DNA from: an uncultured Candidatus Saccharibacteria bacterium
GTDB lineage: Bacteria; Patescibacteriota; Saccharimonadia; CAILAD01; BJGX01
NCBI GenBank assembly: GCA_964552475.1
Contig: CAZKFZ010000003.1
Coordinates: 24,078-88,077 of the forward strand
Length of the DNA stretch: 64,000 nt
Reading direction: 5' to 3'
Below are positions 9,931 through 30,970 of the stretch, one piece after another. The notes beneath the pieces are model-generated. The model ran no database searches and had not been told where the DNA came from. It saw only the letters and a program-made list of their open reading frames with translations. Both the position numbers and the translations under genes were made by a program. Position 1 is the stretch's first letter. Each line of letters starts with the position of its first letter.

Positions 9931-9982
9931 ATGTCTAGAATTTAATAGCTTGAGCGTAGTATAGAGTTATAAATTCTGATAT

Positions 9983-11483: not shown

Positions 11484-11493
11484 TATTATTTAA

Positions 11494-11844: not shown

Positions 11845-11851
11845 TAAAAAA

Positions 11852-11989: not shown

Positions 11990-12144
11990 AACTCAATATA
12001 TTACAGCTAATATAAGCTTAAGTCAAGATATCCACCTTATTTATCCACAACCAAACCAGATTGGTAATGTTTTTGGTCTGTGTTCGGTTGTGGAAAACTT
12101 TTTTAGGCAGTAGTATAGTAAGTAATCTAAAGGGTGAGAAATAA
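11990..12144. promoter_or_regulatory. rpmH-dnaA intergenic region with DnaA boxes (dnaA promoter / oriC-associated)
   Basis: Consensus DnaA box TTATCCACA at 12041-12049; reverse-orientation box TGTGGAAAA at 12089-12097; near-box ATATCCACC at 12028-12036. Confidence 0.55.
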
Positions 12145-13536: not shown

Positions 13537-13823
13537 TAATTAAGTATGTGGAAAACTATGTGTATAACTTGTGAAAACTATGTGTATAGAGTGTATAAAT
13601 ATACACAATATCTACACAATTTATTATTAAGGCTACTTCATGGTGGTGGAGAAGTGTTATTTATACAGAGTTTATACCTACGCTACTCACACCTTTGTGC
13701 ACACACTAAACGCTCGATATTTCGCTTGTTTAGAGGGAAAAATATTGGTTATCCTACCTATCCACATAGCCTAATACTATTACTACTAAATAATACGAAT
13801 AAATATGATAAGATAGAAAACAT
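13537..13823. promoter_or_regulatory. dnaA-dnaN intergenic DnaA-box cluster and AT-rich unwinding element (candidate oriC)
   Basis: TGTGGAAAA at 13547-13555; repeated 'GAAAACTATGTGTATA'; TATCCACAT at 13759-13767; strongly AT-rich stretch 13770-13823 immediately before dnaN. Confidence 0.55.
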
Positions 13824-14924
13824 ATGAAACTCTCTGTATTACAAAACAATTTAAACAAAGCACTTAGTGTAACTAGTAGAATTATTCAAAACAATAATAG
13901 TCTTCCTGTACTTAGTAATATACTATTACAAACTAGTGATGGTCGTTTAGAACTTCAAGCTACCAATTTAGAATTAGCAATTTCTTATAAAATAGGTGCC
14001 AAAATAGAAAAATCAGGTAGCCTTAGTGTACCTGCTAGGTTACTAAGTGACCTCATACATAGCCTACCGAATGATAAAATTCAATTAGTTAAAGAAAAAG
14101 ACAATTTAAACATACATACTAGTCAGTTAAACTCTATAATAAATGGAATTTCTGCAACAGAGTTTCCAAAAATACCCAAGGTAAAAACTTTACAACAGTT
14201 TAATGTAGCTACAGAAGACTTTATAAAAGGTTTAGAATATGTACTAACTTCAGTTAGTTTAGATGAGTCCAGACCAGTTCTTACAGGGGTGTATTGTAGA
14301 TTTAAAAATTCGGTCCTTACTTTTGCAGCAACCGATAGTTATAGATTAGCTCAATTTAGTATTACTGGTCTTAAAATTAATGATCTTGAAATTATCATTC
14401 CATATAAAACTATTCAAGAACTTATACGTATTATTAAAGCCGAAGAAGTTAAAGATTTAGAAGTTGGTATTACAAAGACCGAAATAGTGTTTTCTACTAA
14501 AAATTTCACTCTTACATCTCAACTTATAGATGGAAGTTATCCAGATTACTCCAAAATAATACCTAAAAGTTCCGCAACATCTTTAGTAGTAGATAAAGAC
14601 GAACTACTAAGTAGTTTAAAAATCGCAAGTCTATTCTCGCGTGAGAACGCTAACACCATCACTTTATCTGTATCTAAAAATAATCTTACTATTCAATCCC
14701 AAGGTTCTCAGGTAGGTACTAACGAATCCACTATACTAGTGAAATCTAGTGGATCAGATCAAGAGATAAATTTAAACGCTCGATATTTAATAGATACTAT
14801 CTCGGTTATTACTGAAAAAACTATTAATATTTCATTAAACGATAAATTAGATCCATGTATAGTTTCTGGTGGTAATAAAAAATCTCCCAACAATTTCCAT
14901 ATTATTATGCCCTTAAGGAGTTAA
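13824..14924 (+). CDS. dnaN: DNA polymerase III beta sliding clamp
   Basis: 366 aa; conserved position after dnaA; beta-clamp-like three-domain layout. Confidence 0.9.
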   Translation: MKLSVLQNNLNKALSVTSRIIQNNNSLPVLSNILLQTSDGRLELQATNLELAISYKIGAKIEKSGSLSVPARLLSDLIHSLPNDKIQLVKEKDNLNIHTSQLNSIINGISATEFPKIPKVKTLQQFNVATEDFIKGLEYVLTSVSLDESRPVLTGVYCRFKNSVLTFAATDSYRLAQFSITGLKINDLEIIIPYKTIQELIRIIKAEEVKDLEVGITKTEIVFSTKNFTLTSQLIDGSYPDYSKIIPKSSATSLVVDKDELLSSLKIASLFSRENANTITLSVSKNNLTIQSQGSQVGTNESTILVKSSGSDQEINLNARYLIDTISVITEKTINISLNDKLDPCIVSGGNKKSPNNFHIIMPLRS

Positions 14925-16269: not shown

Positions 16270-17073
16270 TTATTTATCTAGAGGTATACCATCGCCACCG
16301 TAGTCATCTAGGTATATTTTAGAATTACTAGGTATTTTATTACTATCTATATATTTAGCCAAAGTAGGGTTATCGGCAGTCAACACATAAGTATTTCTAT
16401 CTATACCAGTACTATTTAGAAAGTCAGTTACAGTCTTTGCTGTGGCTTTTATTTCACTATCAGGATAAGGAGGTGTTAAGCCCATGTAAAACAGATTTTT
16501 TACCACAACTATAGTATTACTTTTACCATTACTATCAACTATTTTGCCACTTTTTATAACATAATTATCTGTGCTATAAGGTAAGAAGTTTAATATTGTT
16601 TTATTAGTTGGAGTCGGGTCAGTATCTTCAAGTTGTTGTTTTTTCTGATCTTCAGTTAAATTAGAGTATGGTATATATTTTGTTTTAAATTGTATCTTAA
16701 TATCTTTCAACTGCTCACCTTTTACTGATGATATTTTATTGATTGTAATTATATAAACATAATTATTTTTTAATGCATTAAAATTAATAACTAAGTCTTT
16801 ATTGTTAATATTAATGCTTCTAACTAAATCTTTTTCAGCATTTATATCACTTAGAGTTACGCTTTTTAAATCTATTTCCTTATTGAAAGTTAATATCATT
16901 TTATTAGCAGATGTTGGAACTAAGTTATTAGTATTAGGGTTAGTACTTTCTAATTTGAATACACTATTAGACTTATTATTTGAGTACAATAAAGCAATAG
17001 CAAAAACTATAAAGGTAATTATTATTATAATAATAATTACAGTGAAATATTTATTTTTTAGTAAATTATTCAT
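16270..17073 (-). CDS. bitopic membrane protein, possible VirB8/PrgL-like T4SS component
   Basis: Short N-terminal tail, single TM ('FTVIIIIIIITFIVFAIALLY') and roughly 230-aa extracytoplasmic domain; lies after the hydrolase gene as prgL does. Inference from topology and synteny only. Confidence 0.35.
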   Translation of the reverse strand: MNNLLKNKYFTVIIIIIIITFIVFAIALLYSNNKSNSVFKLESTNPNTNNLVPTSANKMILTFNKEIDLKSVTLSDINAEKDLVRSININNKDLVINFNALKNNYVYIITINKISSVKGEQLKDIKIQFKTKYIPYSNLTEDQKKQQLEDTDPTPTNKTILNFLPYSTDNYVIKSGKIVDSNGKSNTIVVVKNLFYMGLTPPYPDSEIKATAKTVTDFLNSTGIDRNTYVLTADNPTLAKYIDSNKIPSNSKIYLDDYGGDGIPLDK

Positions 17074-18218
17074 TACTCAACCCTCATAAATCCAGTTAGA
17101 TATCTAGCATTAACACTATGGGTGGATTGTTTTACCTGATCACTTTCGTTACCACCTATAGTAGTGAAGTTACCAGCTCCGTCATATTCGGTTACAATAT
17201 TTACATGACTAGGATAAGGCATTAAACCTTCTTTATAAATAGCCACGTCACCTGGCTGAGGTTCAAAACCCGCCTCACCTTTCGGGTGGTAGAAGTTGTT
17301 TGTTCTAGCATAATCCAGTATTGCTTGGGCCGAGGCTATCGTTCCATTACCACCACCTACGGTTAATGGTTTTCCAGCTTCTCTAAATATATAACTAACA
17401 AAGTATGCACACCAAGGTGGGTTACCACCACCAGTATATTTAGAAATATCTTGTTCACCACTATTCCAAGACTCTAACTCATCTCGAGCAACACTTACAA
17501 CTGAACTATTTTTATTAATAACAGGACTGTCACATTTGCCCTCACCTATATCAGTGTCTGTAGAAGTAGATGGGTTATTTGGACTACCATTATTAGTTAT
17601 TCCTGCGGCTTGTAAATATCTATCAAATTCAGGTGCTTCATTATATCTAAGTACAATATCTTGACCAGCCCCAGCCGCAATATCGTCTATTACACTTTGA
17701 GCATATTGCCTTGGAGTAATTACGTTATTACCAACTATAGTGTCTAATAATGACGGGTCATCAATGGCAGCAGGATAAAAATGGCTAAGTGCAAGTTTAA
17801 AGATATCGTTACCTAAATCTCTAAATTTTTTCTCATACTCTATTTTTGCTACTGCATCTTGTATAGGCCCAGGTGCATCTTTGGCTCTAGCGTAAGGTAT
17901 GGCTGGTGGGTATGCTTGTTTCACACTATTCCAGGTACTATCTATATACTGATATCTTCCGGATGCCGAAGAGCCACCAGCATCAGCAATATAATCTCCA
18001 CTACCAGAACTTTCATTAAAAGCAATTACTTGTAAAAACCTATCTACATCACCACCTGTTGCGGTTGACGAAGATTCACCTACGCAGTCGGTAGGGTCGT
18101 AAAACGGTCTTTTTTCTATCTCTTTTCTTTGTTGGTTGGTAAGTGCAGAAGATTTAAAAGGTACTAGTAAGAAAACTAGTACTAGTATTATTGAAATTTT
18201 TCTAAACATACTTATCAT
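17073..18218 (-). CDS. secreted bifunctional peptidoglycan hydrolase (lysozyme-like + CHAP), PrgK/VirB1-like
   Basis: Start placed at the internal Met of signal peptide 'MISMFRKISIILVLVFLLVPFKSSA'. Central 'SGRYQYIDSTWNSV' resembles the transglycosylase-like 'G-x-YQF...TW' motif. C-terminal CHAP features: 'PPWCAYFVSYIF' Cys and 'PSHVNIV' His. Confidence 0.6.
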   Translation of the reverse strand: MISMFRKISIILVLVFLLVPFKSSALTNQQRKEIEKRPFYDPTDCVGESSSTATGGDVDRFLQVIAFNESSGSGDYIADAGGSSASGRYQYIDSTWNSVKQAYPPAIPYARAKDAPGPIQDAVAKIEYEKKFRDLGNDIFKLALSHFYPAAIDDPSLLDTIVGNNVITPRQYAQSVIDDIAAGAGQDIVLRYNEAPEFDRYLQAAGITNNGSPNNPSTSTDTDIGEGKCDSPVINKNSSVVSVARDELESWNSGEQDISKYTGGGNPPWCAYFVSYIFREAGKPLTVGGGNGTIASAQAILDYARTNNFYHPKGEAGFEPQPGDVAIYKEGLMPYPSHVNIVTEYDGAGNFTTIGGNESDQVKQSTHSVNARYLTGFMRVE

Positions 18219-18220
18219 TG

Positions 18221-21200
18221 TTAATTTCCTGTTACTGACCAGTGCCAGGCCTCTGAAGGTAGGTTTTTTAATCCATATTCTTGGGCATGTTGTACCATCC
18301 AATTAAAACAAGGTGAGCCTCCGAAATTAAACGCCGAACCACCATTACAATTGAAGTCTATTGCTAATCCTTTTTCATGATTCGATGACCCTGGTTCAGC
18401 GGTAGGTGGATTACAGCTACCACCGCTACAATTTTGGTTATACAAATCAACCTGTTCTTCATAAGACCTAAATCCACCTCCACCCATTATTATTCCGGCG
18501 GCCTGTGCATCTTTTAGTAGTTTATTGAGTTGACTAGCTAAAGATACATTTATATCTATTACACCCCCGGCAGGTGCGGCTACGTCACAAACCATTATTT
18601 TATTTGCAGAAACACCGCCAGGACCATAGGTTTGAGCAACACCATTTACTAAGTTTGGACCTGTACTAGTAGTAATGCCGGGTTCATTTGGGCAAGGCGT
18701 TCCACTAGTGTCTGCATCAGCATTTGGTTCACCACCTATCGGTCCTGTTGGGGTTGATGTTTTAGCATAAATACTTTGGTTATCTTCATCACTACTTAGA
18801 GATACCATTTGGTCGAGTAAAGTATTGTAGTAAGTGTACATTCTATATCGTATAGGTAGTTTATTTTCTTCAATATTAAAGTCTTGTGCTTGTTCTAGTA
18901 TTATTTTACAATCATAAAACTTCATAAATTCACCATCTGCGTCATTGTCGGCTCGATCAACCCTATTTACAGGTGTGACATTACCATTTGCATCTTTAAA
19001 AACTCCTCTATGCCATTCCGGGAAGAATACAAACCACTGAACAGCATTAGCATTAGGATACTTTGCCCTAATGCTAGCTTTTAGTGCCTCGTCATTTAGC
19101 TCATTAAATTTCTTTGATTTAAGTTTGAAATATTGTGAGGTTGGTATCTTTTTCTTAAAACACTCATCATAATGTGTGAGTTTTACTCTATCGTTCTCTG
19201 TGCCTGTGGCGCCACTCTTAATATCTTCAATAACCTTTGCATTATCTAACATATCAAAACTATTAAAATCCTGAGGAGGTATACCGGCGGTATCAATTTT
19301 TAGATATTGGTCACCATTAATACTTGCAGCAAAGGCTTTGTTGTGTTGACCAAATCCGTAGTACAGAGCCGAGCTATGTATGTTTGCCAAAGATCTTAAC
19401 GGGTTTAGAACTTCTTTAAATAATGAACTTGCAGTCTTCATTGCAGTTTTTGGTGTAATGGTATTTTGGGCAATAATACTACGTGCTGATCTGATGTTTT
19501 CACTAGCAAATAATCTATAACCTATACCGTTTTCTTTCTCTTCATTACGACGAGTGTTTTCACTATCTAGAGCTACTTGTCTTGCTTCCACTTCAGTTAA
19601 AAATCTACCACCTATCCTCAAGAAATAATCATTCATAAGTTGTCTAAAACCAGCCGCCTGCCTATTGTAGTTGTCTGGTCCCGACTCTAACCCACTTACT
19701 GCTGTGACCGACCCTGTTCGTACATAAGAAGTAATAATTTCTTTTAGACCAAAATCTTCTATACTATTAAAAACACCCTGTGAGTTATTAACAATCGCAA
19801 GCTTTAATAATTGATAACTTGGTTGAATAAGTTCATCACCAAGTAATAACAGTGTCTTATTGTTATCTGTTAAAAAAGTACAGGATAGTAATAATAAATC
19901 TACAGATGGATCATCGGTTAAATCTGTTTGTCTGGCATTATAAGCTCTAGTAGATGTAGCTTCAGGATTTTGTTCTACTCCACGCAGTTCATTATAAACA
20001 TCGAGCTGATACGAAGTACTACTAGACCAATTATCTTGTTGAGCAATAGTTGCATTATTTTCTACATTACTAAGTTGGTCGGCATTGCGAGTATCGGCCA
20101 TTGTTAATACTTTTATAGCACCACGCTCGGTACTAGCTAACCTACTTTCTATTGCTTTTCTTGCATTACTTGCAGCAGCTTCACTACGAGGTGTATTACC
20201 TAGGTCTAAAAAAGCATATGTAAATGGACATATAGTATTTGCAATACCAGCCCTTACTAAGTTTTTTTCTACAGAGCTTGTTTGTGGCGTATACGAATCT
20301 CTTTCGGGAATGTTTAAATACTTACCTACCGATATATCGTAAGGACTAGTGCCGTCAGCCATATCTTCATACATTTTATTTATACCAGCCACTAGATCTT
20401 GTTTATTTTCTTTAAAAGGTATTTTATTGTCAGGGTTAGTATTATTATATGCTGTCACAGCATCTCTATAGTTGTTTTGAAACTCGGTTATTTGACCTTG
20501 ATAAGATGAAAAGTCTATTGTTTCTTCGGTAGTTGGGGTTATTCTACCGATTGTTTTGTTAAAAACATAGCGATTCACCTCATCTCTACTACCTCTAAAT
20601 TCTTCAGTATCTTTTTTGCCAGCATAGTCTAGATGGATATTTGCTAATTGATTTATTTCTCTAGTAACAGGTTGGCGAGCCATCATATTAAATATTGGAT
20701 ATTGTTTTTGGATACAATAGCTAGCAGCTTGGTTAGAACCCAACTGATTTAAAGGTATTACTTCTCTTGTTCTTTTATTAAAAACTTCTTTTGGTACATA
20801 TCTAGTTTTACCTTCAGAATTTATTTTGAGTTGGAGTCTAAGCTCATACACGCAACCAGCATTATCTAAGGTTTGATACCGCGCTTGTCGCCAGTCTATT
20901 TGTGATAACCTATCTAACGTTGTGCCTGGTTCAATAGTTGATGGGTTAGCGGCAACTGCAGTATTTGGGCCTTTATAATCTACCTCTCCAGTATAGGAAA
21001 GGGCTCTTATACTTGCTTCTAAAGCACCTTTACTGAAAGCCTGTGCAACATCTATACCAAACTCACGAATCTTTGAATTTGTTAAGACTGCCTTAACAGC
21101 ATCCCATGGGTTTTGAATAAGATAGACGATAATAAAAATTGGCACCATAGCGATAGCTAGAATACCGAAAGCAATAGCCACAAAAGCCATTTTGTGTTTT

Positions 21201-21679
21201 GATACTTCTTCACCAACTTTTGCTCCAATCTGAGCACCAGCAGTTCCTCCAAGCGCTGCCCCTGCTGCTGCTCCAGCTCCTTTAAGTGCTGTGTTTGATA
21301 ATTGTCCTTCACGCTGAGCTTTTTTTTCTGGCGACTCCTTGTCTATTTTATCTACGGCTTTTAGGGCTTTGTCGGTACCTCCACCACCCTTCCCGCCGGA
21401 GGCGGCTTTATCAATAGCTTTATTCGCTATTTTATTAACCTTTTGACCACCAGTATCATCTTTTTGTATACCACTACCACCCATACCTTCCATACCTTTA
21501 GGTAGTCCTTCGGTTGGGCTCAGTCCAGATCCAGTAATAGCTTTTGGTCCGCCATCTTGTTTACCTTTCTCTTTTGAAAGTGGGCTTACGGGTAAATCGG
21601 ATGCACCAGCAAGGCCACTAGGCTTAGCAGCCTTGTTGTTTGTGTCATCGTCTGGTAATTTTGTTGCGGTTGCAGGCAT
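18221..21679 (-). CDS. giant (1152 aa) membrane-anchored protein with C-terminal M15 (VanY-like) peptidase domain
   Basis: Gly/Ala/Lys-rich disordered N-terminus, one TM helix ('MAFVAIAFGILAIAMVPIFIIVYLI'), about 900-aa extracytoplasmic region. C-terminal 'GGGFRSYEEQ', 'SNHEKGLAIDF' and 'EAWHWS' match the M15 Zn D,D/L,D-peptidase motifs. Confidence 0.6.
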   Translation of the reverse strand: MPATATKLPDDDTNNKAAKPSGLAGASDLPVSPLSKEKGKQDGGPKAITGSGLSPTEGLPKGMEGMGGSGIQKDDTGGQKVNKIANKAIDKAASGGKGGGGTDKALKAVDKIDKESPEKKAQREGQLSNTALKGAGAAAGAALGGTAGAQIGAKVGEEVSKHKMAFVAIAFGILAIAMVPIFIIVYLIQNPWDAVKAVLTNSKIREFGIDVAQAFSKGALEASIRALSYTGEVDYKGPNTAVAANPSTIEPGTTLDRLSQIDWRQARYQTLDNAGCVYELRLQLKINSEGKTRYVPKEVFNKRTREVIPLNQLGSNQAASYCIQKQYPIFNMMARQPVTREINQLANIHLDYAGKKDTEEFRGSRDEVNRYVFNKTIGRITPTTEETIDFSSYQGQITEFQNNYRDAVTAYNNTNPDNKIPFKENKQDLVAGINKMYEDMADGTSPYDISVGKYLNIPERDSYTPQTSSVEKNLVRAGIANTICPFTYAFLDLGNTPRSEAAASNARKAIESRLASTERGAIKVLTMADTRNADQLSNVENNATIAQQDNWSSSTSYQLDVYNELRGVEQNPEATSTRAYNARQTDLTDDPSVDLLLLSCTFLTDNNKTLLLLGDELIQPSYQLLKLAIVNNSQGVFNSIEDFGLKEIITSYVRTGSVTAVSGLESGPDNYNRQAAGFRQLMNDYFLRIGGRFLTEVEARQVALDSENTRRNEEKENGIGYRLFASENIRSARSIIAQNTITPKTAMKTASSLFKEVLNPLRSLANIHSSALYYGFGQHNKAFAASINGDQYLKIDTAGIPPQDFNSFDMLDNAKVIEDIKSGATGTENDRVKLTHYDECFKKKIPTSQYFKLKSKKFNELNDEALKASIRAKYPNANAVQWFVFFPEWHRGVFKDANGNVTPVNRVDRADNDADGEFMKFYDCKIILEQAQDFNIEENKLPIRYRMYTYYNTLLDQMVSLSSDEDNQSIYAKTSTPTGPIGGEPNADADTSGTPCPNEPGITTSTGPNLVNGVAQTYGPGGVSANKIMVCDVAAPAGGVIDINVSLASQLNKLLKDAQAAGIIMGGGGFRSYEEQVDLYNQNCSGGSCNPPTAEPGSSNHEKGLAIDFNCNGGSAFNFGGSPCFNWMVQHAQEYGLKNLPSEAWHWSVTGN

Positions 21680-21739
21680 TTATAATAAAAACTCTTATAC
21701 TTAAAAATTATAGCAGATTTATCTATACAATTACTAAAT

Positions 21740-23605
21740 CTACCCAGTTACTTCTTCTACAGAAATGTCTTTACTATCATTCGCACTCGTTACTGCCATA
21801 CTTTCACTTATTAAGTCTTGTGGGTTGGTAGTAATAAGCTCGGTTTCCGTTGGGCTAGCTATAATATGAAGTATTATGTGGCTTAAACCAGCAAAAAATA
21901 ACCCTTCACCCACAGGGAACTGACTAAGTCTTTTCTTCTCTTCACTAGTAAGCTTGAATGTCTCAGCCACCACATCAACAGCCGCTGGATTTTGTTTAAG
22001 TAAAAGCTGCAAACTAGAGTTGTTTACAATTGCTCGGCCTAATCTAGTACCTAAGAAATCTTCGACATCTTGTGAAATAGTCGTAAGACCCAAGAAATAT
22101 TTTCGAGCACGTTTTGCAATAGAAAACATAAACATAGCTGAGTCTTGGTACTGCATAAGTTGCCATGCCTCATCTATAATAAGTACCCGTTTTTTCTTCT
22201 CAGACTTTACTCTGTTCCAGACATAATTAAGCACAATATACATACCTATGGGCCGCAATTCGTCTTCCAAATCTCGAATATTAAATACTACAAACGGATT
22301 ATTTAGATTTACATTACTTTGCTGAGAAAATATGCCAGAAAAAGTACCCTCGGTAAATCTACGAAGTCGTGCAGCCAGTGCTGGGCCATTTCCACCCATT
22401 TCGTTTAAGTTATTATATAGATCTAACATTACTGGAGGCTCAGCGGTATGAGTAAGTGGGTCGTTAGTAATGCCTTTTTGGGCGTAAGTATTAATGAGCG
22501 CAATGTCTAGATCAGATTCTTCTGTGGGTGAAAGCTCACCCATCATTAGTCTAAGTAGACCATGGAGCATTATGATGTTTGCTCGCAGAGCATTATCGGC
22601 TTCGTCTGAGTCTATAGCTGTAGGGATATCAAAAGGGTTCACATGGCTATCACTAGTTAGACTAAGCTGTAAAAAGCTACCACCTACAGCATCGCATAGT
22701 GTTCTATATTCGTTTTCTGGGTCTATTACAATTATTTCGGTACCAAACATCAAAGAACGCAAAGCTTCAAGTTTTACAGCAAAAGACTTACCAGCACCAG
22801 ACTTGGCAAATACCACCATGTTGGCATTTTCTAAACTAAATCTATCAAATAATACCAAGCCGTTATTGTGACGGTTAATACCATAAAGAATTCCCTCCTC
22901 ATTGCTAAGGTTGGCGGTGGTGAATGGGAAAGTAGTAGAAATTGCGCCGGTGTCCATATTGCGTTTCACACCTAGTAGGTCGCTACCTAGTGGTAGAGTT
23001 GAGGTAAAACCTTGTTCCATCTGTATAGTAGCCGGCTTTGTATATATAAGACTTGTACCCAAAACTGACTCTATTTTTTTTACTAACTCCTCAAGCTCCT
23101 CAAGTGTTGTTCCATAAATCGTTACGTACAAACCAAGCCTAAAAAACCTATCTTCACCTACCTGTAATTTATCACGCAATTCTTCGGCATCACTTAAAGA
23201 TGCTTCAAGAGCTGGGTCTCTAACTTTACCTTTTTCGGCATTTATAGATTGATTAGCTTCTAGTTGACCAACTTTTTTCTTAAGATTATCTAGTACTACC
23301 CTACTCTCAACCGGTTCTATTGCTAGGCTTATATCTATTATTTCGTCCATATTTATAAGAGGACTAAGCCAACCAGTAAATAAGCTCCTAGGATAAGCAT
23401 ATACAAATAATGTTCTGGCAAAGCGCGAGCCGATACGTATATAATTCGCTTCTATTTGTATAGAGCTAGGTGCTATTACGTCACGAAGTGTTACAACACC
23501 CTGGCGATATATTTGTTGAGCTTGTTGTTGAGCATTGGCATTGGCTTGTTGTTGGGGTGTAAGAGTTGGGGTTGTCGGTTGTGCTGGTTTTTTACCAAAT
23601 ATCAT
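21740..23605 (-). CDS. VirB4/TraC/PrgJ-family T4SS ATPase
   Basis: Walker A 'AKSGAGKSF', Walker B 'VLIIDEAWQL'; N-terminal 'RTLFVYAYPRSLFTGWLSPLI' VirB4-domain motif; Q-rich N-terminal tail. Confidence 0.85.
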   Translation of the reverse strand: MIFGKKPAQPTTPTLTPQQQANANAQQQAQQIYRQGVVTLRDVIAPSSIQIEANYIRIGSRFARTLFVYAYPRSLFTGWLSPLINMDEIIDISLAIEPVESRVVLDNLKKKVGQLEANQSINAEKGKVRDPALEASLSDAEELRDKLQVGEDRFFRLGLYVTIYGTTLEELEELVKKIESVLGTSLIYTKPATIQMEQGFTSTLPLGSDLLGVKRNMDTGAISTTFPFTTANLSNEEGILYGINRHNNGLVLFDRFSLENANMVVFAKSGAGKSFAVKLEALRSLMFGTEIIVIDPENEYRTLCDAVGGSFLQLSLTSDSHVNPFDIPTAIDSDEADNALRANIIMLHGLLRLMMGELSPTEESDLDIALINTYAQKGITNDPLTHTAEPPVMLDLYNNLNEMGGNGPALAARLRRFTEGTFSGIFSQQSNVNLNNPFVVFNIRDLEDELRPIGMYIVLNYVWNRVKSEKKKRVLIIDEAWQLMQYQDSAMFMFSIAKRARKYFLGLTTISQDVEDFLGTRLGRAIVNNSSLQLLLKQNPAAVDVVAETFKLTSEEKKRLSQFPVGEGLFFAGLSHIILHIIASPTETELITTNPQDLISESMAVTSANDSKDISVEEVTG

Positions 23606-23606
23606 T

Positions 23607-24488
23607 TTACTTTTGCCCTCCAGCTATATTAGGGGGTTGGGGATTGCTAGGTTGACTTGGTTGTGCGGGATTAGAGTTAGTTTGTCTATTTGCAGCCGAG
23701 TATAGATCGTCTGGGACTGGTTCTTTAGGTTTTTGGCTTGGTATTTTGGCCAGACCATCTTTTCTTAGGACTGCCGGAGTACTCATGTCAGCTATATCAG
23801 TAAGTGATTGGTTTTGGCTTTCTGCTACATTATAGGAGTTGTAAAACAACTCTATAACTTCTTGTGTGTTGAGTATAACTGTCCTTACACCTATCTGCGC
23901 CAAGCCTTGAGCTACCTGGTTAGTCCTCTGCAATAAATCATTCTTGCGTTGTTCGTACTCTCCACTCGTTTGAGTAACCTCAGCCGAGTCACTAGATGCT
24001 CCACGTAATTTAGTGAATATATTCGCTTTAGTTACAACATTTACATAGTATGGAACAACCACGTAAAAGCGTTTTTCCATAATATTTACTTCGTTTAGGA
24101 GACTTTTTATATTGGTAACGTAGTCATCCATTAGATCGGCTAGTAATGGATTAGGTTGATCACTTTGTATTACCTCTAGCTTACTTAGGTAATTATCTAA
24201 ATCTATCTTGCGTGACTGTATTACTATTTGAATAGGAAAATGCAAACCGTTTAGGAAACCCTGAAAAGCAAACTCAATAGCTTCTTTCTCGTCTGGGCTT
24301 TTAAGATCGAAATTAGTTGGAGAACATAGTATTACGGCCCGTAAACTACCATCACGCATCACCACGATACCATCTCTTATTTCTGAAAAAGGCAAATGAC
24401 TTTGAGTGCTCATCTGCTTGTTTTGTTCTTTTTTTGGTGGAGTGACCGAGTTTACGTATTCACGCTGTTGGGGGGTAATCTGTGCCAT
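23607..24488 (-). CDS. hypothetical protein translationally coupled to VirB4 (T4SS-associated)
   Basis: 293 aa, Pro/Gln-rich C-terminus; stop and the VirB4 start are in TAAAATG coupling arrangement. Confidence 0.4.
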   Translation of the reverse strand: MAQITPQQREYVNSVTPPKKEQNKQMSTQSHLPFSEIRDGIVVMRDGSLRAVILCSPTNFDLKSPDEKEAIEFAFQGFLNGLHFPIQIVIQSRKIDLDNYLSKLEVIQSDQPNPLLADLMDDYVTNIKSLLNEVNIMEKRFYVVVPYYVNVVTKANIFTKLRGASSDSAEVTQTSGEYEQRKNDLLQRTNQVAQGLAQIGVRTVILNTQEVIELFYNSYNVAESQNQSLTDIADMSTPAVLRKDGLAKIPSQKPKEPVPDDLYSAANRQTNSNPAQPSQPSNPQPPNIAGGQK

Positions 24489-24573
24489 TTTTGTATATAA
24501 TAACCTATTTTGCTTAAGCTTTATTATAACAGCTTAAGTACTATAATAAAGCCACTTCAAAAACTTGTTATTT

Positions 24574-25416
24574 TTACTGCCGTACTTGCGCACTAGTACC
24601 TGGCGAAAGTTGTTGAGTTTGTTGGTTAGCTCTGGTTGCTACTTGTTGAATAGTAAGACTACTACCTTGCATTGCAACCTGACTAGCAGCTGGGTTTATA
24701 GTTTGTAATTGTTGCGGCACTTGGTTTACAGAAGGTTGACTATTGTTTGGTTTTCGTAAAGCTTGTCGAACTTGGGTGGCTGCATTTTGGCGCGAATCTT
24801 CCTTGGCGTTTTGTAGTAGTTTTTCAACCGTATTAGCTCTTTGACTAGTTTCATCTAAAACATCATCTTTTGGTGTAATTAACCTATGAGCGGTGTCTAT
24901 AGTATTATTAGAGCTTTCTTCTGTACCAACTTGTTGAGGGCCAATAATTCGTTTGGCATAAATAGATGCTTCATTATCTCCTTCGTGTAATTGTACACTT
25001 GGGTCTTTAAAGTTACCACGCGTATCTATAATAGACGCAAGCTGTTTAAGTTGACCAACCGAAACAGATTGATCTTTCTCTAGATTTTCTTTGGGTTTTT
25101 CTACATCTTTTACAATAACCTCTTTTTTATCATCTTTTATCCAGGTGCGAGTTCTAGGTACAACTAAGAATCTAAAAAACGCCACCATATAGTCTTCAAA
25201 AGGTACTCCTTCACGCGACCCAAACCCAAGTAAAAGGAAAAAACCTGTTACCGGAAAAGCAAATATAAGAGCGACTATTATAGAAAAGCTAAATATACGC
25301 CACATTAAAAATCCCCACATCAGCGCAATTATTACGTATATAAATTGCTTTACTGAGAGCGGCCCTAGTATTTTATCTTCGGTCTCTACATTTTGTGGTA
25401 CTTTGTATTCACCCAT
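24574..25416 (-). CDS. VirB3/PrgI-like small membrane protein with Gln-rich C-terminal tail
   Basis: N-terminal hairpin of two TM helices ('FIYVIIALMWGFLMWRIFSFSIIVALIFAFPVTGFFLLLGF'); sits between the VirB6-like and VirB4 genes as prgI does. Confidence 0.4.
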   Translation of the reverse strand: MGEYKVPQNVETEDKILGPLSVKQFIYVIIALMWGFLMWRIFSFSIIVALIFAFPVTGFFLLLGFGSREGVPFEDYMVAFFRFLVVPRTRTWIKDDKKEVIVKDVEKPKENLEKDQSVSVGQLKQLASIIDTRGNFKDPSVQLHEGDNEASIYAKRIIGPQQVGTEESSNNTIDTAHRLITPKDDVLDETSQRANTVEKLLQNAKEDSRQNAATQVRQALRKPNNSQPSVNQVPQQLQTINPAASQVAMQGSSLTIQQVATRANQQTQQLSPGTSAQVRQ

Positions 25417-25460
25417 ATATATTAATTATAACAATCTCATTATTTTAAGCATAATTATTA

Positions 25461-27710
25461 TTATGGTCTCACAACTCTGTTATTATTAAGATTTGCATGA
25501 GCTACACTTTGGTGAACTGTAGGAGATGAGTTAGGATTGAGCCTCTGTTGTTTAGCAACTTCTCCAGCGTGCATTTGGTCGTAAGCAATTCTTTTATGAT
25601 GAATATCCAGAGGAACTCCAGTAGGCGCCGGAGGTGTGGCACTATCGTTTGCAACCTGTCTTGTTGTTGCTTCATATAGGTTAGTATAAGCAATTCGTTC
25701 TCTATCAGCCGGTGTAACGCCTGCTGCTTGACCACCATCGGTTCTTGCTTGTTTTTCTACATCCCATGCAATCACCGATTCTTGGTATGTTCTTCCACCT
25801 GTCTCGTGAGCTATCTTATCAAAATCTGCTCTTTGTTTGGCGTTTAGTGGTGGTAAACCAGCATCAAAACCTTGTTTGCCTTCAACTAACTTGTCTCTGT
25901 ATGCTTTCTGAAGTACTTTCTTGGCAACCTTGGCATCTGGTGTTGATTCACCATTCTTTGTTTGACGCGATAAAGCAATTTGATCATCAACATCCATAAG
26001 GCCAATATCTTTTTTCTTCGCCTCTTCAACTTTGTCATCGGTTCTGAGTTTATTTTGCTTAAAACTTCTTCCTAGCTTCGTATTGCTACCACGAAAAGCC
26101 GCACTAGCACCCTCAAACCCCTTAGATTTTAGCTCAGCAAGCTTGCCTTCTTGACCACTCTTCTTCACAGCACCTTTACCAGCGCCAATTGCAGCTTTAC
26201 CCACTCCTGTATTTGCAACAGCTTTACCTGCTGCTCCCATAATATCACCACTAAGTTTGAGCGTTTTTGGAACCAAAGCAAGTATAAGAACAGGTACAAA
26301 TATAGCAATCAAATTAGTTAAGAAGTTCGCCACAGCACCCTGGAATCCTCCAGAATCAAACAAACCATTTTGTAAAAGATTTACAAATATAGCTCCTATA
26401 GCAAACAAAAGATTTACCAATAAGAACATAATAGATAGCTTTATCATGTACTTCCACCACTGCTTAAAGAACTTCTCGGTGTTTGGTAATACCCAAGCAG
26501 CAAAAGCTATCGGAGCAAACAAAACCAACCCAACTAGTGCTAAGTAACGTAGCATTAAATAGAAGAAAGCAATTATCGCCACTATTAGGCCTATTATTTC
26601 GGCAATTTGTAGCATTACAAACTGCCCAATTGTCTGGAATATACCACCTGCAGAAGGATTGACACCGCAAGTTGGTACAAAAAGGCAAGCAAAAGCTTCG
26701 CCTGGTGTTGGAGGAGCACCACCTGTGCCACCTGGAACATTAAAGCTTTGCAGTAAAAACTGAGGTAGTGTACTACCTAAGATATTTCCCAAATCTAAAA
26801 TAACTTGACATATGAGTAATGAAAACTGCGTAAGTATAATTGCCGCTATTAACTTGGGCAAGGTCTTTTTAATAGTATAGTTATCTAAACCTGGTATTGC
26901 CACAAAATTAGCAATAATGATAAATAGAAATATTAGTATATAAAAAGAATTAGCTAGAGTAATCATGGCGTTTACACCATCCTTTAGCTCTACTTGAACA
27001 CTTGAGGCGCCAGAATTACCAACTAAAACAGGGTTCTCTAATAATCCTGTCATTGTATCAATAGTAGTACCTAGTGCCTCAACTAAAAAGTTCTGTACCG
27101 GACAAACTATAAAAGTTAAAGGGCTATTAAGAGTGTCCTCACAAGCATCTAGAGCTTCTTCTTCGCTAGCTTTAGCATCTAGAGCTTCTAATAGATCATC
27201 TGTGAGAAAACGAGGTGCCGCTCCTGTATATCTTGCTTCAACATCAGTACCCTGAAAATCATCATAATCACCACCATCCCATGGAAAACAATCAGTGGGC
27301 TTAACTACAGAACAAAATGTTTTGTCTGGGTCTGAGTTGTTTTCACCACCTTTAAAAGCTCTATCATAATTACGAAAGTTAGATAGACCTATTTGGTCTC
27401 CCCCACTAGCAAACGGATTAGTCACACTAAAACTTTGCCTAAGCTTGGCTACAATAACTCCATCTACTAAACCAAAAGAAATATAATCACCCGTATTCTC
27501 TACATAAGAAGGGTATCCAGTCACTTCACTCCAATATGGATCGTATTTGTATACCTCATCACCACAATCAAGCTCACCAGATGAATTAAACGAGAAAGTA
27601 TCATCACCACCACAAGCTGCATGAGCTTTGTTGGTAAATATAATCATACTAAAAAAAACAATAACCAACGACAGAATTGGTAAAAGCAAAATACGGGAGA
27701 GCTTTTTCAT
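25461..27710 (-). CDS. VirB6/TrbL/PrgH-like polytopic membrane protein
   Basis: Signal peptide, about 240-aa Cys-containing extracellular domain, 5-6 TM helices, about 280-aa charged C-terminal domain; first gene of the minus-strand T4SS-like operon. Confidence 0.5.
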   Translation of the reverse strand: MKKLSRILLLPILSLVIVFFSMIIFTNKAHAACGGDDTFSFNSSGELDCGDEVYKYDPYWSEVTGYPSYVENTGDYISFGLVDGVIVAKLRQSFSVTNPFASGGDQIGLSNFRNYDRAFKGGENNSDPDKTFCSVVKPTDCFPWDGGDYDDFQGTDVEARYTGAAPRFLTDDLLEALDAKASEEEALDACEDTLNSPLTFIVCPVQNFLVEALGTTIDTMTGLLENPVLVGNSGASSVQVELKDGVNAMITLANSFYILIFLFIIIANFVAIPGLDNYTIKKTLPKLIAAIILTQFSLLICQVILDLGNILGSTLPQFLLQSFNVPGGTGGAPPTPGEAFACLFVPTCGVNPSAGGIFQTIGQFVMLQIAEIIGLIVAIIAFFYLMLRYLALVGLVLFAPIAFAAWVLPNTEKFFKQWWKYMIKLSIMFLLVNLLFAIGAIFVNLLQNGLFDSGGFQGAVANFLTNLIAIFVPVLILALVPKTLKLSGDIMGAAGKAVANTGVGKAAIGAGKGAVKKSGQEGKLAELKSKGFEGASAAFRGSNTKLGRSFKQNKLRTDDKVEEAKKKDIGLMDVDDQIALSRQTKNGESTPDAKVAKKVLQKAYRDKLVEGKQGFDAGLPPLNAKQRADFDKIAHETGGRTYQESVIAWDVEKQARTDGGQAAGVTPADRERIAYTNLYEATTRQVANDSATPPAPTGVPLDIHHKRIAYDQMHAGEVAKQQRLNPNSSPTVHQSVAHANLNNNRVVRP

Positions 27711-27801
27711 AACACTTATGTTACACTAAATAACTTACAAATTATAGACCTTAAAGACAGGCCTTATCGCTTTAAACATAACAAGTGATATAATACATAG
27801 C

Positions 27802-28395
27802 ATGCAATTTATTTACAGACCACTACTTGCTGCCCAGTGTGGAATACTAGACAATCTACCTAATGGATCTAACTTGTGCCAAAACGGTCTATCCCTTAAT
27901 GATGTTATTAGTCTGTTGGCTGGCTATATTGTGACCCTGATAGGTCTTATTTTAGCAGTTGTTATATTATATTGCGCTGTCGAGATTGTTACCTCGGGTG
28001 GTAGCCAAGAGCGAATAAAGTCGGCCAAAAATCGTCTTACCCAAGCTGCCATTAGCTTGGGCTTACTAATATCTTTTAGAGCAATAATTGCGGTCTTTGG
28101 TATAGATGGTGGTAATACCGGTGCGGGCGCCCCAACACTGTTTAATGGCGTAGATGAGTTTAGTCTTGAGGGTGTAGAGAAGTTAATTGCTAATGCTGCA
28201 CAGATACTTATGATGGCAGTAGGCGCATTTTCGGTAATATTTATAGTGGTTGGTGCGGTACAATATATTACTTCGGCTGGCAACGAACAAAGCGTAGCAA
28301 ACGCCAAGAGGACAATTACCTACGCTGTAAGCGGGCTTATACTCGCACTTTCTACGGTCGCAATCATTACGTTTATTAATACTCAGTTTTTTTAA
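27802..28395 (+). CDS. VirB2/TrbC-like pilin-family protein carrying two tandem pilin modules
   Basis: Two internal copies of the module shared with the three downstream paralogs: hydrophobic helix, 'SGGSQERIKSAKNR' / 'SAGNEQSVANAKRT' loop, second hydrophobic helix. Confidence 0.5.
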   Translation: MQFIYRPLLAAQCGILDNLPNGSNLCQNGLSLNDVISLLAGYIVTLIGLILAVVILYCAVEIVTSGGSQERIKSAKNRLTQAAISLGLLISFRAIIAVFGIDGGNTGAGAPTLFNGVDEFSLEGVEKLIANAAQILMMAVGAFSVIFIVVGAVQYITSAGNEQSVANAKRTITYAVSGLILALSTVAIITFINTQFF

Positions 28396-28439
28396 GTAAC
28401 CTTGCCAAAACCTTAGCGTAAGAGTTAATATATTATCAA

Positions 28440-28730
28440 ATGAAGTTACTTAGTATATTATTACTAGCAGATTTTGAAGCTCCTCCTGGACTAGGTGGGC
28501 CAGCAACCTTTGGTGATTTAGTAGGTAAGGTAACAAACACACTACTTCTTATTGCTGGTGCTGTTGCCGTGATAGTAATTGTGGTAGGTGGAATACAATA
28601 CACACTATCGGCTGGTGATGAGAAGCGTACGAAAACTGCCAAAGATACTATTACTAATGCCGTTATTGGCCTAGTAATAGCTATAATGGCCTTTGCGATA
28701 GTAAACTTTGTACTTGGTACGTTTAAATAA
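28440..28730 (+). CDS. VirB2/TrbC-like pilin paralog
   Basis: 'VVGGIQYTLSAGDEKRTKTAKDTITNAVIGLVIAIMAFAIVNFVLG'; two hydrophobic helices with a short charged loop. Confidence 0.5.
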   Translation: MKLLSILLLADFEAPPGLGGPATFGDLVGKVTNTLLLIAGAVAVIVIVVGGIQYTLSAGDEKRTKTAKDTITNAVIGLVIAIMAFAIVNFVLGTFK

Positions 28731-28818
28731 GAAAACTATTGTCACTTGTTGCAAAAAAACTACCTTGCGGTATCATAAGAAGTAAGCTAAAATATCTAGT
28801 AAATGCTTTATAAATAAT

Positions 28819-29196
28819 ATGGAGAATAAAATGACATTATCTAAAAAAACGCAAAGACTAGCAATTGTAACAGGTAGTAGTGTAGTTGCATTGGTCCCAA
28901 CAGTAGCGTTGGCAGCCGACACTACTCAAGATGCTGTAGATGCCGTACAGCCCGCCTCGGCCGCTACTGGCGACCTGCAAAGCAATATTAAAAACATTAT
29001 TAACGCCATGCTCTTAGTTATTGGTATTGTGGCAGTAATAATGCTAATTGTGGGCGGTTTTAGATATGTAATAAGTAATGGCAACGAAAAGGCTGTTACT
29101 GGTGCCAAAGACACTATACTATATGCAATTATTGGTATTGTTGTAGCTCTACTTTCATTTGCTATTGTAAACTTTGTGCTTGGTCAGTTTAGTTAA
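28819..29196 (+). CDS. VirB2/TrbC-like pilin paralog
   Basis: Signal-like N-terminus plus 'IVGGFRYVISNGNEKAVTGAKDTILYAIIGIVVALLSFAIVNFVLG'. Confidence 0.5.
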   Translation: MENKMTLSKKTQRLAIVTGSSVVALVPTVALAADTTQDAVDAVQPASAATGDLQSNIKNIINAMLLVIGIVAVIMLIVGGFRYVISNGNEKAVTGAKDTILYAIIGIVVALLSFAIVNFVLGQFS

Positions 29197-29228
29197 AAAA
29201 TAATTCAAGGGGTGTAAGTTAAACAATT

Positions 29229-29582
29229 ATGAGAACTAAAATTAAAACACTTTCTGCAATAACTACGGGGTATGTAGTTCTTGCGGCTACTAGAGTCTAT
29301 GCAGTTTCTAACCCCGCTCAAACGGGCGCCAACAAAGCTAAAGACCCAAGCCAACCCACCGATTTACTTGCAAATGTTAAGCTTATTACTAATACCCTTC
29401 TGCTTGGAATAGGTGTAATATCTGTCATTATGATAGTTATCGGTGGTATACGTTACGCGACCTCTGGTGGTGACGAAAAAGGCACAAAAGGCGCCAAAGA
29501 CACTATTTTATATGCCGTTATTGGCCTTGTGGTGGCGCTTCTTGCATTTGCTATAGTTAACTTTGTACTAGAAATTTTCTAA
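29229..29582 (+). CDS. VirB2/TrbC-like pilin paralog
   Basis: 'VIGGIRYATSGGDEKGTKGAKDTILYAVIGLVVALLAFAIVNFVL'. Confidence 0.5.
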   Translation: MRTKIKTLSAITTGYVVLAATRVYAVSNPAQTGANKAKDPSQPTDLLANVKLITNTLLLGIGVISVIMIVIGGIRYATSGGDEKGTKGAKDTILYAVIGLVVALLAFAIVNFVLEIF

Positions 29583-29647: not shown

Positions 29648-30970
29648 ATGCGTAATAGATATATTAAGCTATTAGCTTTAATAATTAGTTCTATAGCTCT
29701 ATTTTTTGCTATCTATATAATCACTCAAAGACCATATAGTACTAGCCTTAGCGACTACAAAACTAGTGTACTCTACCCAACCTCGCCAATTACGCTATCT
29801 CTTTGGTTACCTTCCGATGAACAAGGTAACCTTGAGTATGTTGTTGATCAATACCAAAAAGTTCATCCTAATGTGAAGGTTGGTATTGAGTATGTAGATA
29901 TAAATAACTACCAAGCCAAGGTGTTACAAGCAATTTATGAGAATAAATTACCAGATTTATTAGTATTTAGAGATGATAGCTTACCTCTATATAAAAATAG
30001 CCTTCAACCCGCACCAGCCAGTGTATTCACTCCCGATCAATTTAGCTCAACTTTTGCAGATTTTGCCACCAAACAACTTGTGGTTGGCAACAGTATATAT
30101 GGCGCACCCCTAGGTATAGCTACCCTTGGTTTAATTTATAATCAAAACAGGTTTGATCAAGCCAAGATTACTTCACCTCCGACCAATTGGGTAGAGTTTG
30201 ATGCAGTAAATGATAAATTACGACAAAAAACCGACCAAACACTTTATGAGTCTGGTGTAGCTCTCGGTAGCCCAACCGTTCATAGCTACCCAGATATTAT
30301 AAGTGTACTAATGATGCAAAACGGCGCAACAATGACCAACCAACCACCTACCAAAGCAACCTTTGAGTTGCCAGACTCTACCGGCTACTACTCTAGTGCC
30401 AAGGCGCTAGCCTATTATGCAAGTTTTGCCCAACCAACCAAAGCCAACTACTCGTGGAGCGATAGCTTGGGTGATAGTGTAAGTGCGTTTGCCCAAAACA
30501 AAACAGCTACAATTATTGATTACCCTATGGCTGCTAAAACTGTGACCGAGCAAAACCCTACTATGCCCATTAGATTTTCAACCCTACCACAAACTAACTC
30601 CAACAAACCAATAAACTACGGCACATTCTTGATAGGTTCTGTATCAAAAACTACCAAAACACCCAACATTGCATGGGATTTTTGGGGTTTTACTACCACC
30701 AAACAAGCCCAAAGAGACTTTTCTACTAAGAGCTACTGGCCAGCTAGCCGTAAAGATCTTGTAGCTGAACAAACAAACAACAATATACTGAGTCCTTTCG
30801 CTAAACAAATTTCTACCGCACAAGATTGGTATAAAGGGCTTAACCTCGTTACCAACGCAGATTTTCGCGAGATGCTATCAACTTACCTATCTGGCTTAGA
30901 TGCTCAAATAGTTGTAAATAATGCATCCGCTAAAGTTACTACCTCTATAGAGCAAGCCAACTCAAAATAA
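29648..30970 (+). CDS. membrane-anchored extracellular solute-binding-protein-like protein
   Basis: N-terminal TM anchor; 440 aa; overall resemblance to ABC-type sugar-binding proteins. Weak call from composition only. Confidence 0.35.
   Translation: MRNRYIKLLALIISSIALFFAIYIITQRPYSTSLSDYKTSVLYPTSPITLSLWLPSDEQGNLEYVVDQYQKVHPNVKVGIEYVDINNYQAKVLQAIYENKLPDLLVFRDDSLPLYKNSLQPAPASVFTPDQFSSTFADFATKQLVVGNSIYGAPLGIATLGLIYNQNRFDQAKITSPPTNWVEFDAVNDKLRQKTDQTLYESGVALGSPTVHSYPDIISVLMMQNGATMTNQPPTKATFELPDSTGYYSSAKALAYYASFAQPTKANYSWSDSLGDSVSAFAQNKTATIIDYPMAAKTVTEQNPTMPIRFSTLPQTNSNKPINYGTFLIGSVSKTTKTPNIAWDFWGFTTTKQAQRDFSTKSYWPASRKDLVAEQTNNNILSPFAKQISTAQDWYKGLNLVTNADFREMLSTYLSGLDAQIVVNNASAKVTTSIEQANSK

Follow-up and report, generated by a model that had tools for sequence, protein, structure and literature searches.

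A dnaA-proximal type IV secretion locus of a Saccharibacteria bacterium and its probable non-conjugative, host-directed role

Introduction

What does a conjugation-type apparatus do in a bacterium when genes for DNA transfer are missing from its surroundings? This question was raised by a gene cluster for a type IV secretion system (T4SS) in a 64,000-nucleotide stretch of DNA (contig CAZKFZ010000003.1, positions 24,078 to 88,077, of assembly GCA_964552475.1) from an uncultured Candidatus Saccharibacteria bacterium; the whole stretch is called the window below. In this study, the genes of the cluster were compared with family models, related loci and known secretion machines. With a probability of about 0.85, we conclude that the locus encodes a chromosomal, vertically inherited T4SS of Saccharibacteria that bears a pilus and serves as a conduit to the host cell, not for conjugation.

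The system is not of a new kind, and its finding in the window is a rediscovery, in another Saccharibacteria genome, of results reported in 2020, 2023 and 2025. McLean et al. (2020) described, across Saccharibacteria, homologues of VirB4, VirB6 and VirB2 and an array of small secreted proteins, and noted a similarity to ptx/ptl (PMC7427843). Transposon sequencing (Tn-seq) by Wang et al. (2023) showed that the cluster SEML1_0006-0019 was essential in Southlakia epibionticum growing on its Actinomyces host; the authors pointed to a likeness to Gram-positive conjugative systems, an essential pilin array and no recognisable coupling or relaxase proteins (PMC10633639). In a survey of Patescibacteria, Quinonero-Coronel et al. 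(2025) reported a shared MPF_FATA ancestry, TrsD, PrgI, VirB6, pilin arrays and proximity to dnaA, with VirB8 and relaxases being scarce (PMC12102498). According to a 2025 review, the T4SSs of Patescibacteria differ from all others of monoderms in being essential and in potentially forming pili (PMC12857230), and a perspective in PNAS described the role of the T4SS as "completely unknown", effector delivery or uptake having been proposed (PMC11665869). A non-conjugative, host-directed role is the published view (PMC10633639, PMC12102498), and the T4SS is among the few envelope machines whose essentiality for the epibiotic life of Saccharibacteria has been demonstrated. The present analysis adds the assignment of a 293-amino-acid (aa) protein as a detached N-terminal domain of VirB4, supported by a natural fusion; a rejection, on grounds of fold, of a VirB8 label; the observation that the genes following virB4 are kept by position while diverging fast and swapping hydrolase domains; and a putative actinobacterial conjugative cousin and relaxase-less look-alikes on Bacillota megaplasmids, which bear on the origin of the system.

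Results

Conserved synteny and absence of DNA-transfer genes

The cluster consisted of seven closely spaced open reading frames (ORFs) on the minus strand, running from 27710 to 16270, and four ORFs on the plus strand at 27802-29582; the gene limits in an initial annotation, made from the sequence alone, coincided exactly with the ORF boundaries. In the minus-strand arm, genes for a VirB6-like protein, a PrgI/VirB3-like protein, the 293-aa protein, the VirB4 ATPase, a giant 1152-aa protein, a cell-wall hydrolase and a 267-aa protein followed one another, and the plus-strand arm encoded VirB2-like pilins. The VirB4, VirB3-like, VirB2-like pilin, CHAP and M15 labels given initially were all borne out by matches above curated cut-offs.

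A scan of a collection of species genomes with the VirB4 of the window found at least 582 related stretches, the best 80 of which were compared. Nearly all of these 80 were titled Saccharibacteria or Saccharimonadia, a few bearing other candidate-phylum or generic titles, which bore out the organism guessed initially, and their VirB4s showed 62-98% identity with that of the window. Genes were counted in the 39 loci among the best 80 that had full 10-kb flanks, which came from different Saccharibacteria species. The 293-aa gene and prgI were present in all 39, virB6 in 37, and pilin genes in 27-28; the flanking genes recF, dnaN and dnaA were found in 33, 34 and 30 of the loci, respectively, their order matching that of the window. 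The distance from dnaA (12145-13536) to the start of the cluster was 2.7 kb, in agreement with the initial placement in the core chromosome about 3 kb from dnaA. Because the synteny with dnaA-dnaN-recF is conserved, an ordinary integrated conjugative element was ruled out, and the locus is a vertically inherited chromosomal system.

In the best tblastn segments (DnaA/DnaN region, 12145-14924), VirB4 showed 88% identity with that of one relative (L002), as against 68 and 63% for DnaA and DnaN, and 77% with that of another (L004), as against 49 and 48%, respectively. This constraint on VirB4 is unusually strong for a secretion ATPase. Since VirB4 was more conserved than DnaA and DnaN, and its Walker motifs were intact, the system is under strong selection.

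No relaxase, coupling-protein or integrase family was found in Pfam and NCBIfam scans of the window ORFs (every ORF of 180 aa or more, and several below that size), which were housekeeping or unassigned. Likewise, PcfC and PcfG of the plasmid pCF10, and the coupling protein and replication-relaxation protein encoded on a plasmid from Embleya that is described below, gave no phmmer match at E<=0.01 among all six-frame ORFs of the 64-kb window and of the 80 related loci (+/-10 kb of virB4). Thus a relaxase with its oriT, as judged by relaxase searches of the window and the 80 loci, and a coupling protein of VirD4/TcpA type, within the 64 kb and +/-10 kb of virB4 in the 80 loci, were both absent. 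There was also no integrase, either in the window or within 10 kb of virB4 in the 80 related genomes, nor was there the patchy distribution of a conjugative element, the synteny being kept across species. The initial statement that neither a relaxase nor VirD4 was in view therefore held for +/-10 kb of virB4 in the 80 related genomes as well as for the window.

A VirB4 ATPase in two pieces

The VirB4 protein matched NCBIfam NF045971 (CD1110 family VirB4-like conjugal transfer ATPase) with 382 bits against a cut-off of 325, over profile positions 172-731 of 752, and the Pfam families P-loop_TraG and CagE_TrbE_VirB with E-values of 6.6e-26 and 1.4e-4, respectively. Both the Walker A (AKSGAGKS) and the Walker B (VLIIDE, residues 474-479) motifs were intact. 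By phmmer, VirB4 aligned to residues 222-774 of pCF10 PrgJ (E=1.3e-48), and it lacked the N-terminal domain that full-length VirB4 proteins of monoderms carry.

The gene for the 293-aa protein ends 1 nucleotide before the start codon of virB4 and adjoined virB4 in every one of the full loci. Its product matched positions 95-233 of NF045975 VirB4_plasma, a model of the full-length Mycoplasma-type VirB4 (E=1.1e-6), and the TrsD model NF041427 (E=5e-4), both matches being well under the curated cut-offs of these families. An exhaustive HMMER search found 2402 clusters of related proteins, which were mostly stand-alone and of 200-450 aa. One 898-aa protein (P0112) was a natural fusion, in which residues 11-231 matched the 293-aa protein (E=3e-40) and residues 322-891 showed 51% identity with the window VirB4. 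Searches against solved structures with the single sequence gave nothing meaningful, and those with the family profile gave nothing. The model matches, the truncated alignment of VirB4 and the natural fusion showed that the 293-aa protein is a detached, TrsD-like N-terminal domain of VirB4. As "Rosetta stone" evidence, the fusion further suggested that the 293-aa protein and VirB4 act as one ATPase.

Membrane platform and pilin array

The PrgI/VirB3-like protein passed the PF12666 cut-off with 49.7 bits against 27 (5.7e-13) and gave a match to TraL (TIGR02762, 2e-3). Two transmembrane (TM) helices were located within its N-terminal 90 residues and were followed by a Gln-rich C-terminal extension of 185 aa. 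In the VirB6-like protein, a signal/TM segment preceded an extracytoplasmic domain that contained Cys and measured about 210 aa; five TM segments came next (245-488), and the C-terminal 260 aa formed a hydrophilic domain. Among 29 orthologues of the VirB6-like protein, ten independently matched TrbL (best E-value, 1.4e-5) and one matched TrbL_3, and no other family recurred, which lent the initial VirB6-like label a weaker kind of support. A profile search of VirB6 against solved structures found nothing.

The four pilin genes on the plus strand encoded five VirB2-like domains. All four products passed the cut-off of PF18895 T4SS_pilin (39.6-61.4 bits against 26.6), and the domains showed pairwise identities of 16-56%. 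The 197-aa pilin contained two tandem VirB2-like hairpin domains with four TM segments; its halves were only 29% identical to each other, and both aligned with the other pilins. This protein also passed the model NF045849 of Mbov_0395 pilin-like proteins, with 42.8 bits against a cut-off of 40. The 125-aa pilin had three hydrophobic segments.

Fast-diverging proteins encoded downstream of virB4

With tblastn, the three genes downstream of virB4 could be traced in no more than 11, 2 and 1 of the 39 full loci. In about 50 loci, a gene for a giant single-TM protein, one for an anchored hydrolase, and one or two for small anchored proteins nevertheless occupied the same position. The position of these genes is kept, their sequence diverges fast, and their hydrolase domains are swapped.

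The 1152-aa protein had a low-complexity N-terminal tail of about 160 aa rich in Gly, Ala and Lys, one TM segment (161-192), a mostly helical middle of about 850 aa, and a C-terminal M15/VanY zinc peptidase, which also gave LdcB and VanXY matches. The peptidase motif SxHxxGxAxD was found as SNHEKGLAID at 1099-1108, and WHW at 1145. Eighteen homologues were found. In Foldseek searches with its AlphaFold2 (AF2) model, which was poor (pLDDT, the predicted local distance difference test, 50), only the peptidase domain was found (Ply500, LysB4 and VanXYc) and nothing for the central ~850 residues.

The enzymatic end of the giant protein encoded after virB4 varied among the proteins compared, being VanY/M15 in the window, PF26571 in the homologue P0024, and NlpC/P60 with M23 in a Pontibacillus cluster (locus L081, 13887-17039), and size and the single TM segment were kept. 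The hydrolase head of the giant protein appears to be exchangeable, as judged from these domain assignments.

The cell-wall hydrolase had an N-terminal signal/TM segment and a C-terminal CHAP domain (8.2e-10; 39.5 bits against a cut-off of 26) with Cys298 and His366, and gave an endolysin match in PHROG (1e-14). It had been labelled a lysozyme plus CHAP hydrolase; the CHAP part stood, and the lysozyme part was weaker, the N-terminal half showing solely a PHROG transglycosylase match over residues 28-131 (E=9e-5) and an NES...GRYQ motif. These features suggested that the hydrolase, as a predicted transglycosylase with CHAP, fills the VirB1/PrgK role. With a TTG at 18302 as the start codon, its ORF would reach 409 aa; public gene calls are of 378-381 aa, and the longer start is probably unused. 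A single-sequence search of the 409-aa ORF against solved structures gave nothing meaningful.

The structural model of the 267-aa protein (pLDDT 70.5) consisted of an N-terminal TM helix, an immunoglobulin (Ig)-like beta-sandwich at about residues 51-132, and a small C-terminal beta-beta-alpha-beta-alpha-beta domain. The VirB8-like (NTF2) label first given to this protein was rejected on the basis of this fold. Only six homologues were detectable among 5.8 billion proteins, and a single-sequence search against solved structures gave nothing meaningful. The 267-aa protein evolves fast.

Comparison with the cluster of S. epibionticum

The locus in the window is an orthologue of the cluster at about SEML1_0004-0019 of S. 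epibionticum ML1, and as such was already known: the window genes could be matched one by one to the ML1 tables, in which nearly all genes are marked essential. In ML1, as in the wider Patescibacteria clade, the cluster likewise follows dnaA-dnaN-recF and contains neither a relaxase nor a coupling protein. The order is also the same, from an anchored Ig-like protein through a hydrolase of lysozyme/Cys-peptidase type, a giant protein (~1100 aa, with a DD-peptidase-type end), VirB4, a protein of ~294 aa, PrgI and VirB6 to divergent pilins, and SEML1_0005, an exported Ig-like protein, is the counterpart of the 267-aa protein of the window in both position and fold. The two clusters differ in that ML1 has two VirB6-like genes flanking a non-essential NTF2-like gene (SEML1_0011-0013), whereas the window has a single virB6 facing the pilins, and the NTF2-like gene is absent. 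The pilins of the window amount to four genes with five domains as against six pilins in ML1, and the hydrolase to ~381 aa as against 644 aa. The three genes following virB4 in the window were too diverged for alignment with those of most relatives.

As for VirB8, the sources on ML1 disagree: a structural homologue is stated to be absent (PMC12102498), and the table of Wang et al. contains SEML1_0012 as NTF2-like (ECOD e4ec6D1).

Comparison with known conjugation and secretion machines

The Prg/Pcf system of pCF10 from Enterococcus faecalis, which belongs to MPF_FATA, has a parallel order, with PrgF (VirB2-like) followed further on by PrgH (VirB6), PrgI (VirB3), PrgJ (VirB4) and PrgK (a hydrolase with CHAP). 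The initial annotation had read the minus-strand arm as prgH-prgI-prgJ-prgK-prgL. The first four positions were supported by the PrgJ alignment, the PrgI family match and the pCF10 order, but the fifth fell, the 267-aa protein not being VirB8-like. The core order was found conserved both in pCF10 and in other Saccharibacteria, the two comparisons proposed at the outset. The window VirB4 and PrgJ belong to the same NCBIfam CD1110 family; the N-terminal domain is part of one chain in PrgJ and has a separate gene in the window. Unlike those of pCF10, the pilin genes of the window are multiple and divergently transcribed, and the giant M15 protein is without a pCF10 counterpart. Conversely, pCF10 encodes PcfC as its coupling protein, PcfG as its relaxase, the adhesin PrgB and two VirB8-like proteins, PrgL and PrgD, none of which was found in the window. 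In direct phmmer comparisons of the window proteins with the Prg proteins, only the VirB4/PrgJ pair was detected; PrgH, PrgI, PrgK, PrgL and PrgF were beyond the reach of a single sequence. PrgF matched, weakly, pilins in two related loci.

Of other conjugative systems, the Trs system of pGO1/pSK41, whose TrsD model is matched by the 293-aa protein, is part of a conjugative element. The integrative conjugative element of Mycoplasma (Mbov_0395-0397) resembles the locus in two proteins, the 197-aa pilin passing the Mbov_0395 model and the 293-aa protein matching the N-terminal part of the Mbov_0397 VirB4. The Bordetella Ptl, Brucella VirB and Helicobacter ComB systems function with neither a VirD4-type coupling protein nor a relaxase, Ptl and VirB exporting proteins and ComB importing DNA (PMC12102498, PMC11665869). 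All three belong to diderms, have a VirB7/9/10 core in the outer membrane and are not close in sequence, so that their likeness to the window system would be functional only.

Plasmid-borne relatives in other monoderms

The nearest plasmid-borne VirB4 proteins, with 36-38% identity to the window protein, were those of monoderms, that of Embleya being the nearest (38%) and that of Pontibacillus showing 37%. On the 898-kb megaplasmid of Pontibacillus sp. ALD_SL1 (NZ_CP062975; locus L081, 7486-17039), a T4SS cluster in the order of the window lies beside flagellar genes. It comprises two T4SS_pilin genes and genes for a TrbL-like protein of 779 aa, a PrgI/TraL-like protein of 116 aa, a protein homologous to the 293-aa one (E=1.6e-32), VirB4 and a protein of 1050 aa with NlpC/P60 and M23 domains. 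Within 12 kb of it, neither a coupling protein nor a relaxase was found, and the replicon was typed as non-mobilizable. In contrast to the window locus, all genes run in one direction, NlpC/P60 and M23 domains stand in place of M15, and the host is a free-living member of the Bacillota. A similar cluster is present on pFDU301A of Priestia megaterium (NZ_CP045273; locus L083, ~9860-14106), a replicon also typed as non-mobilizable. A relaxase-less form of the system may exist outside Patescibacteria; if this is true, the Bacillota megaplasmid clusters would mean that the non-conjugative form arose outside that group.

The linear plasmid of Embleya sp. (NZ_CP108778; locus L082) has an unannotated pilin-like ORF (7757-8002) upstream of a gene of VirB6 size. 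In the protein encoded at 10365-11414, annotated as PrgI family, the C-terminal half resembled the 293-aa protein, so that it represents a fusion of VirB3 with the VirB4 N-terminal domain. After virB4, this plasmid encodes a coupling protein and a replication-relaxation protein, and the cluster includes an NlpC/P60 hydrolase. From its gene content, the Embleya system looks like a conjugative cousin.

Pilins were considered as a feature unique to Patescibacteria among monoderms. This was rejected, since virB4 has genes of the pilin family next to it in Pontibacillus, Priestia and Embleya, and since VirB2-like PrgF pili were reported in most Gram-positive conjugative plasmids by ter Beek et al. 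(2025; bioRxiv 10.64898/2025.12.18.695078). Because of these three clusters and that report, it is likely that the ancestral monoderm system already included the pilins and that they were not taken over from diderms.

Discussion

Since no coupling protein or relaxase is encoded nearby, and the position beside dnaA is fixed in many species, the apparatus in the window is not expected to be one for conjugation. From the missing DNA-transfer genes and the synteny we infer a non-conjugative function directed at the host, in agreement with the published view and with the role proposed initially. The observation from which this study started was partly confirmed, the VirB8 label alone failing, and the interpretation was supported, matching the published picture almost point for point.

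In the mechanism that we propose, a platform of VirB3 (PrgI) and the extended VirB6 carries, as homology shows, a VirB4 split into the TrsD-like protein and the ATPase body. On the model of pCF10 PrgF/PrgH, this platform would polymerise the VirB2-like pilins into a tube across the cell wall; a pilus built on VirB6 has been modelled for Gram-positive systems (bioRxiv 10.64898/2025.12.18.695078). The three predicted cell-wall-cutting activities (transglycosylase-like, CHAP and M15) might open the wall of the epibiont itself and possibly that of the host. The assembled system would not conjugate but would act as a contact-dependent conduit between epibiont and host.

Several points weigh against this proposal. 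VirD4-like proteins occur elsewhere in many Patescibacteria genomes, including that of ML1, where the protein is non-essential (PMC12102498). No VirB8-like bitopic component of NTF2 fold was found in this locus. The VirB6 assignment, weaker but supported, starts from sub-threshold matches of the window protein (TrbL, E=1.7e-3; NF046089, E=3.2e-3), and the structural models are of moderate confidence for the 267-aa protein and of low confidence for the 1152-aa protein. Finally, a scan for consensus promoters and terminators over 15.8-31.6 kb found no more sites than in shuffled sequence.

As to what such a conduit carries, the system may be an exporter of effectors, injecting them into the host bacterium or releasing them onto it with no coupling protein involved, as in Bordetella Ptl and Brucella VirB, to subdue the host or feed on it. 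We regard this as a serious candidate at somewhat less than even odds. The lack of a coupling protein near the cluster in the window and the 80 loci is in line with it; precedents for T4SSs without one exist (PMC12102498, PMC12857230), Wang et al. (2023) suggested protein export, and the similarity to ptx/ptl was noted by McLean et al. (2020). On the other hand, there was no recognisable candidate effector gene in the locus, and the neighbouring genes were housekeeping genes.

Transport in the opposite direction, in which the pilus and channel take up host nucleotides, DNA, lipids or other building blocks, is a more doubtful possibility, drawn by analogy with ComB of H. pylori or the archaeal Ced system. 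In ML1 the system is essential, ComEC-dependent competence is not, and the organism is unable to synthesise nucleotides or lipids (PMC11665869, PMC12857230), which would fit import. The window VirB4 also matched the models of the importer ATPases CedB and CedD, but weakly and with generic P-loop similarity. Import mediated by a T4SS is rare, however; the locus has no gene for a partner specific to uptake, and a solute-binding protein gene next to the pilins was kept in only 4 of the 39 full loci. We further considered an organelle mainly for uptake, in which the core would build the tube, the three fast-diverging downstream proteins would breach the wall of the host and not that of the epibiont and would set the host range, and the tube would import cytoplasmic material of the host. 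This is unlikely.

It is improbable that the system performs true conjugation or DNA export by means of a coupling protein and a relaxase, the latter unrecognised, whose genes would lie in another part of the genome. The nearest plasmid VirB4, that of Embleya, does belong to a system in which the same core is accompanied by a coupling protein and a replication-relaxation protein, and VirD4 homologues are present in many Patescibacteria genomes (PMC12102498); none of the DNA-transfer genes was found in the window or the 80 loci, however, and the fixed dnaA-adjacent position with conserved synteny is unlike that of a mobile element. A decaying, functionless remnant of an integrated conjugative element, as the absent DNA-transfer genes and a G+C content of 0.32 at the 16-18 kb end might suggest, was rejected as very improbable on conservation and synteny, for VirB4 is more conserved than DnaA and DnaN, all ORFs are intact with their catalytic motifs, dozens of species share the gene order, the somewhat low G+C is common to the adjoining dnaN and recF, and the ML1 orthologues are essential. 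The probability left over from export, import, DNA transfer and a remnant falls to other roles.

Layout of the locus and neighbouring genes

The features of the locus are listed in Table 1. The intergenic region between the two arms presumably holds the promoters of both.

Table 1. Features of the T4SS locus, with positions in the window and the evidence for each assignment
Feature	Position	Strand	Evidence
Ig-like bitopic protein, 267 aa	16270..17073	-	structure model
Cell-wall hydrolase, ~381 aa	17073..18218	-	CHAP and transglycosylase-like matches
Giant M15/VanY protein, 1152 aa	18221..21679	-	VanY 1.4e-12
VirB4 ATPase, 621 aa	21740..23605	-	NF045971, Walker motifs
Detached VirB4 N-terminal domain (TrsD-like), 293 aa, soluble	23607..24488	-	NF045975, TrsD, natural fusion
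PrgI/VirB3-like protein, 280 aa	24574..25416	-	PF12666
Extended VirB6-like polytopic protein, 749 aa	25461..27710	-	TrbL via orthologues
Divergent intergenic region between virB6 and pilin genes, 91 bp	27711..27801	.	gene coordinates
Tandem double pilin, 197 aa	27802..28395	+	PF18895 8.8e-17, two matched stretches
VirB2-like pilin, 96 aa	28440..28730	+	PF18895 2e-12; TrbC 3.4e-5
VirB2-like pilin with signal peptide, 125 aa	28819..29196	+	PF18895 1e-10; TrbC 1.7e-5
VirB2-like pilin, 117 aa	29229..29582	+	PF18895 5.6e-10

On one flank of the cluster, the plus strand carries dnaA, a 93-aa ORF, dnaN, recF and a small DciA-like gene, and the minus strand carries rnpA, yidC, a KH/R3H-domain gene and mnmE at 8.5-11.8 kb. 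On the other flank of the locus lie hsp20, tRNA genes and valS. The 93-aa ORF (13546-13827), located between dnaA and dnaN, had no family match and was detectable in the closest relative only (L001, 67%).

An orphan gene for a solute-binding protein (SBP_bac_1), at 29648-30970, follows the last pilin gene by 65 bp on the same strand. Because its position was so seldom kept in the related loci, this gene is probably not a component of the T4SS.

Four ORFs of 284-426 aa in the window had no family match (38601-39659, 44832-46112, 53556-54410 and 59074-60054). The cumulative GC skew dropped from about 12 kb to a minimum at about 50-52 kb, not at dnaA, and then rose; this weak signal may reflect gene orientation. 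Functions in the cell-wall cross-bridge were encoded at 6799-8538 and 42798-44827, by genes for a VanW-like protein with peptidoglycan-binding domains and for two FemAB-family proteins in tandem.

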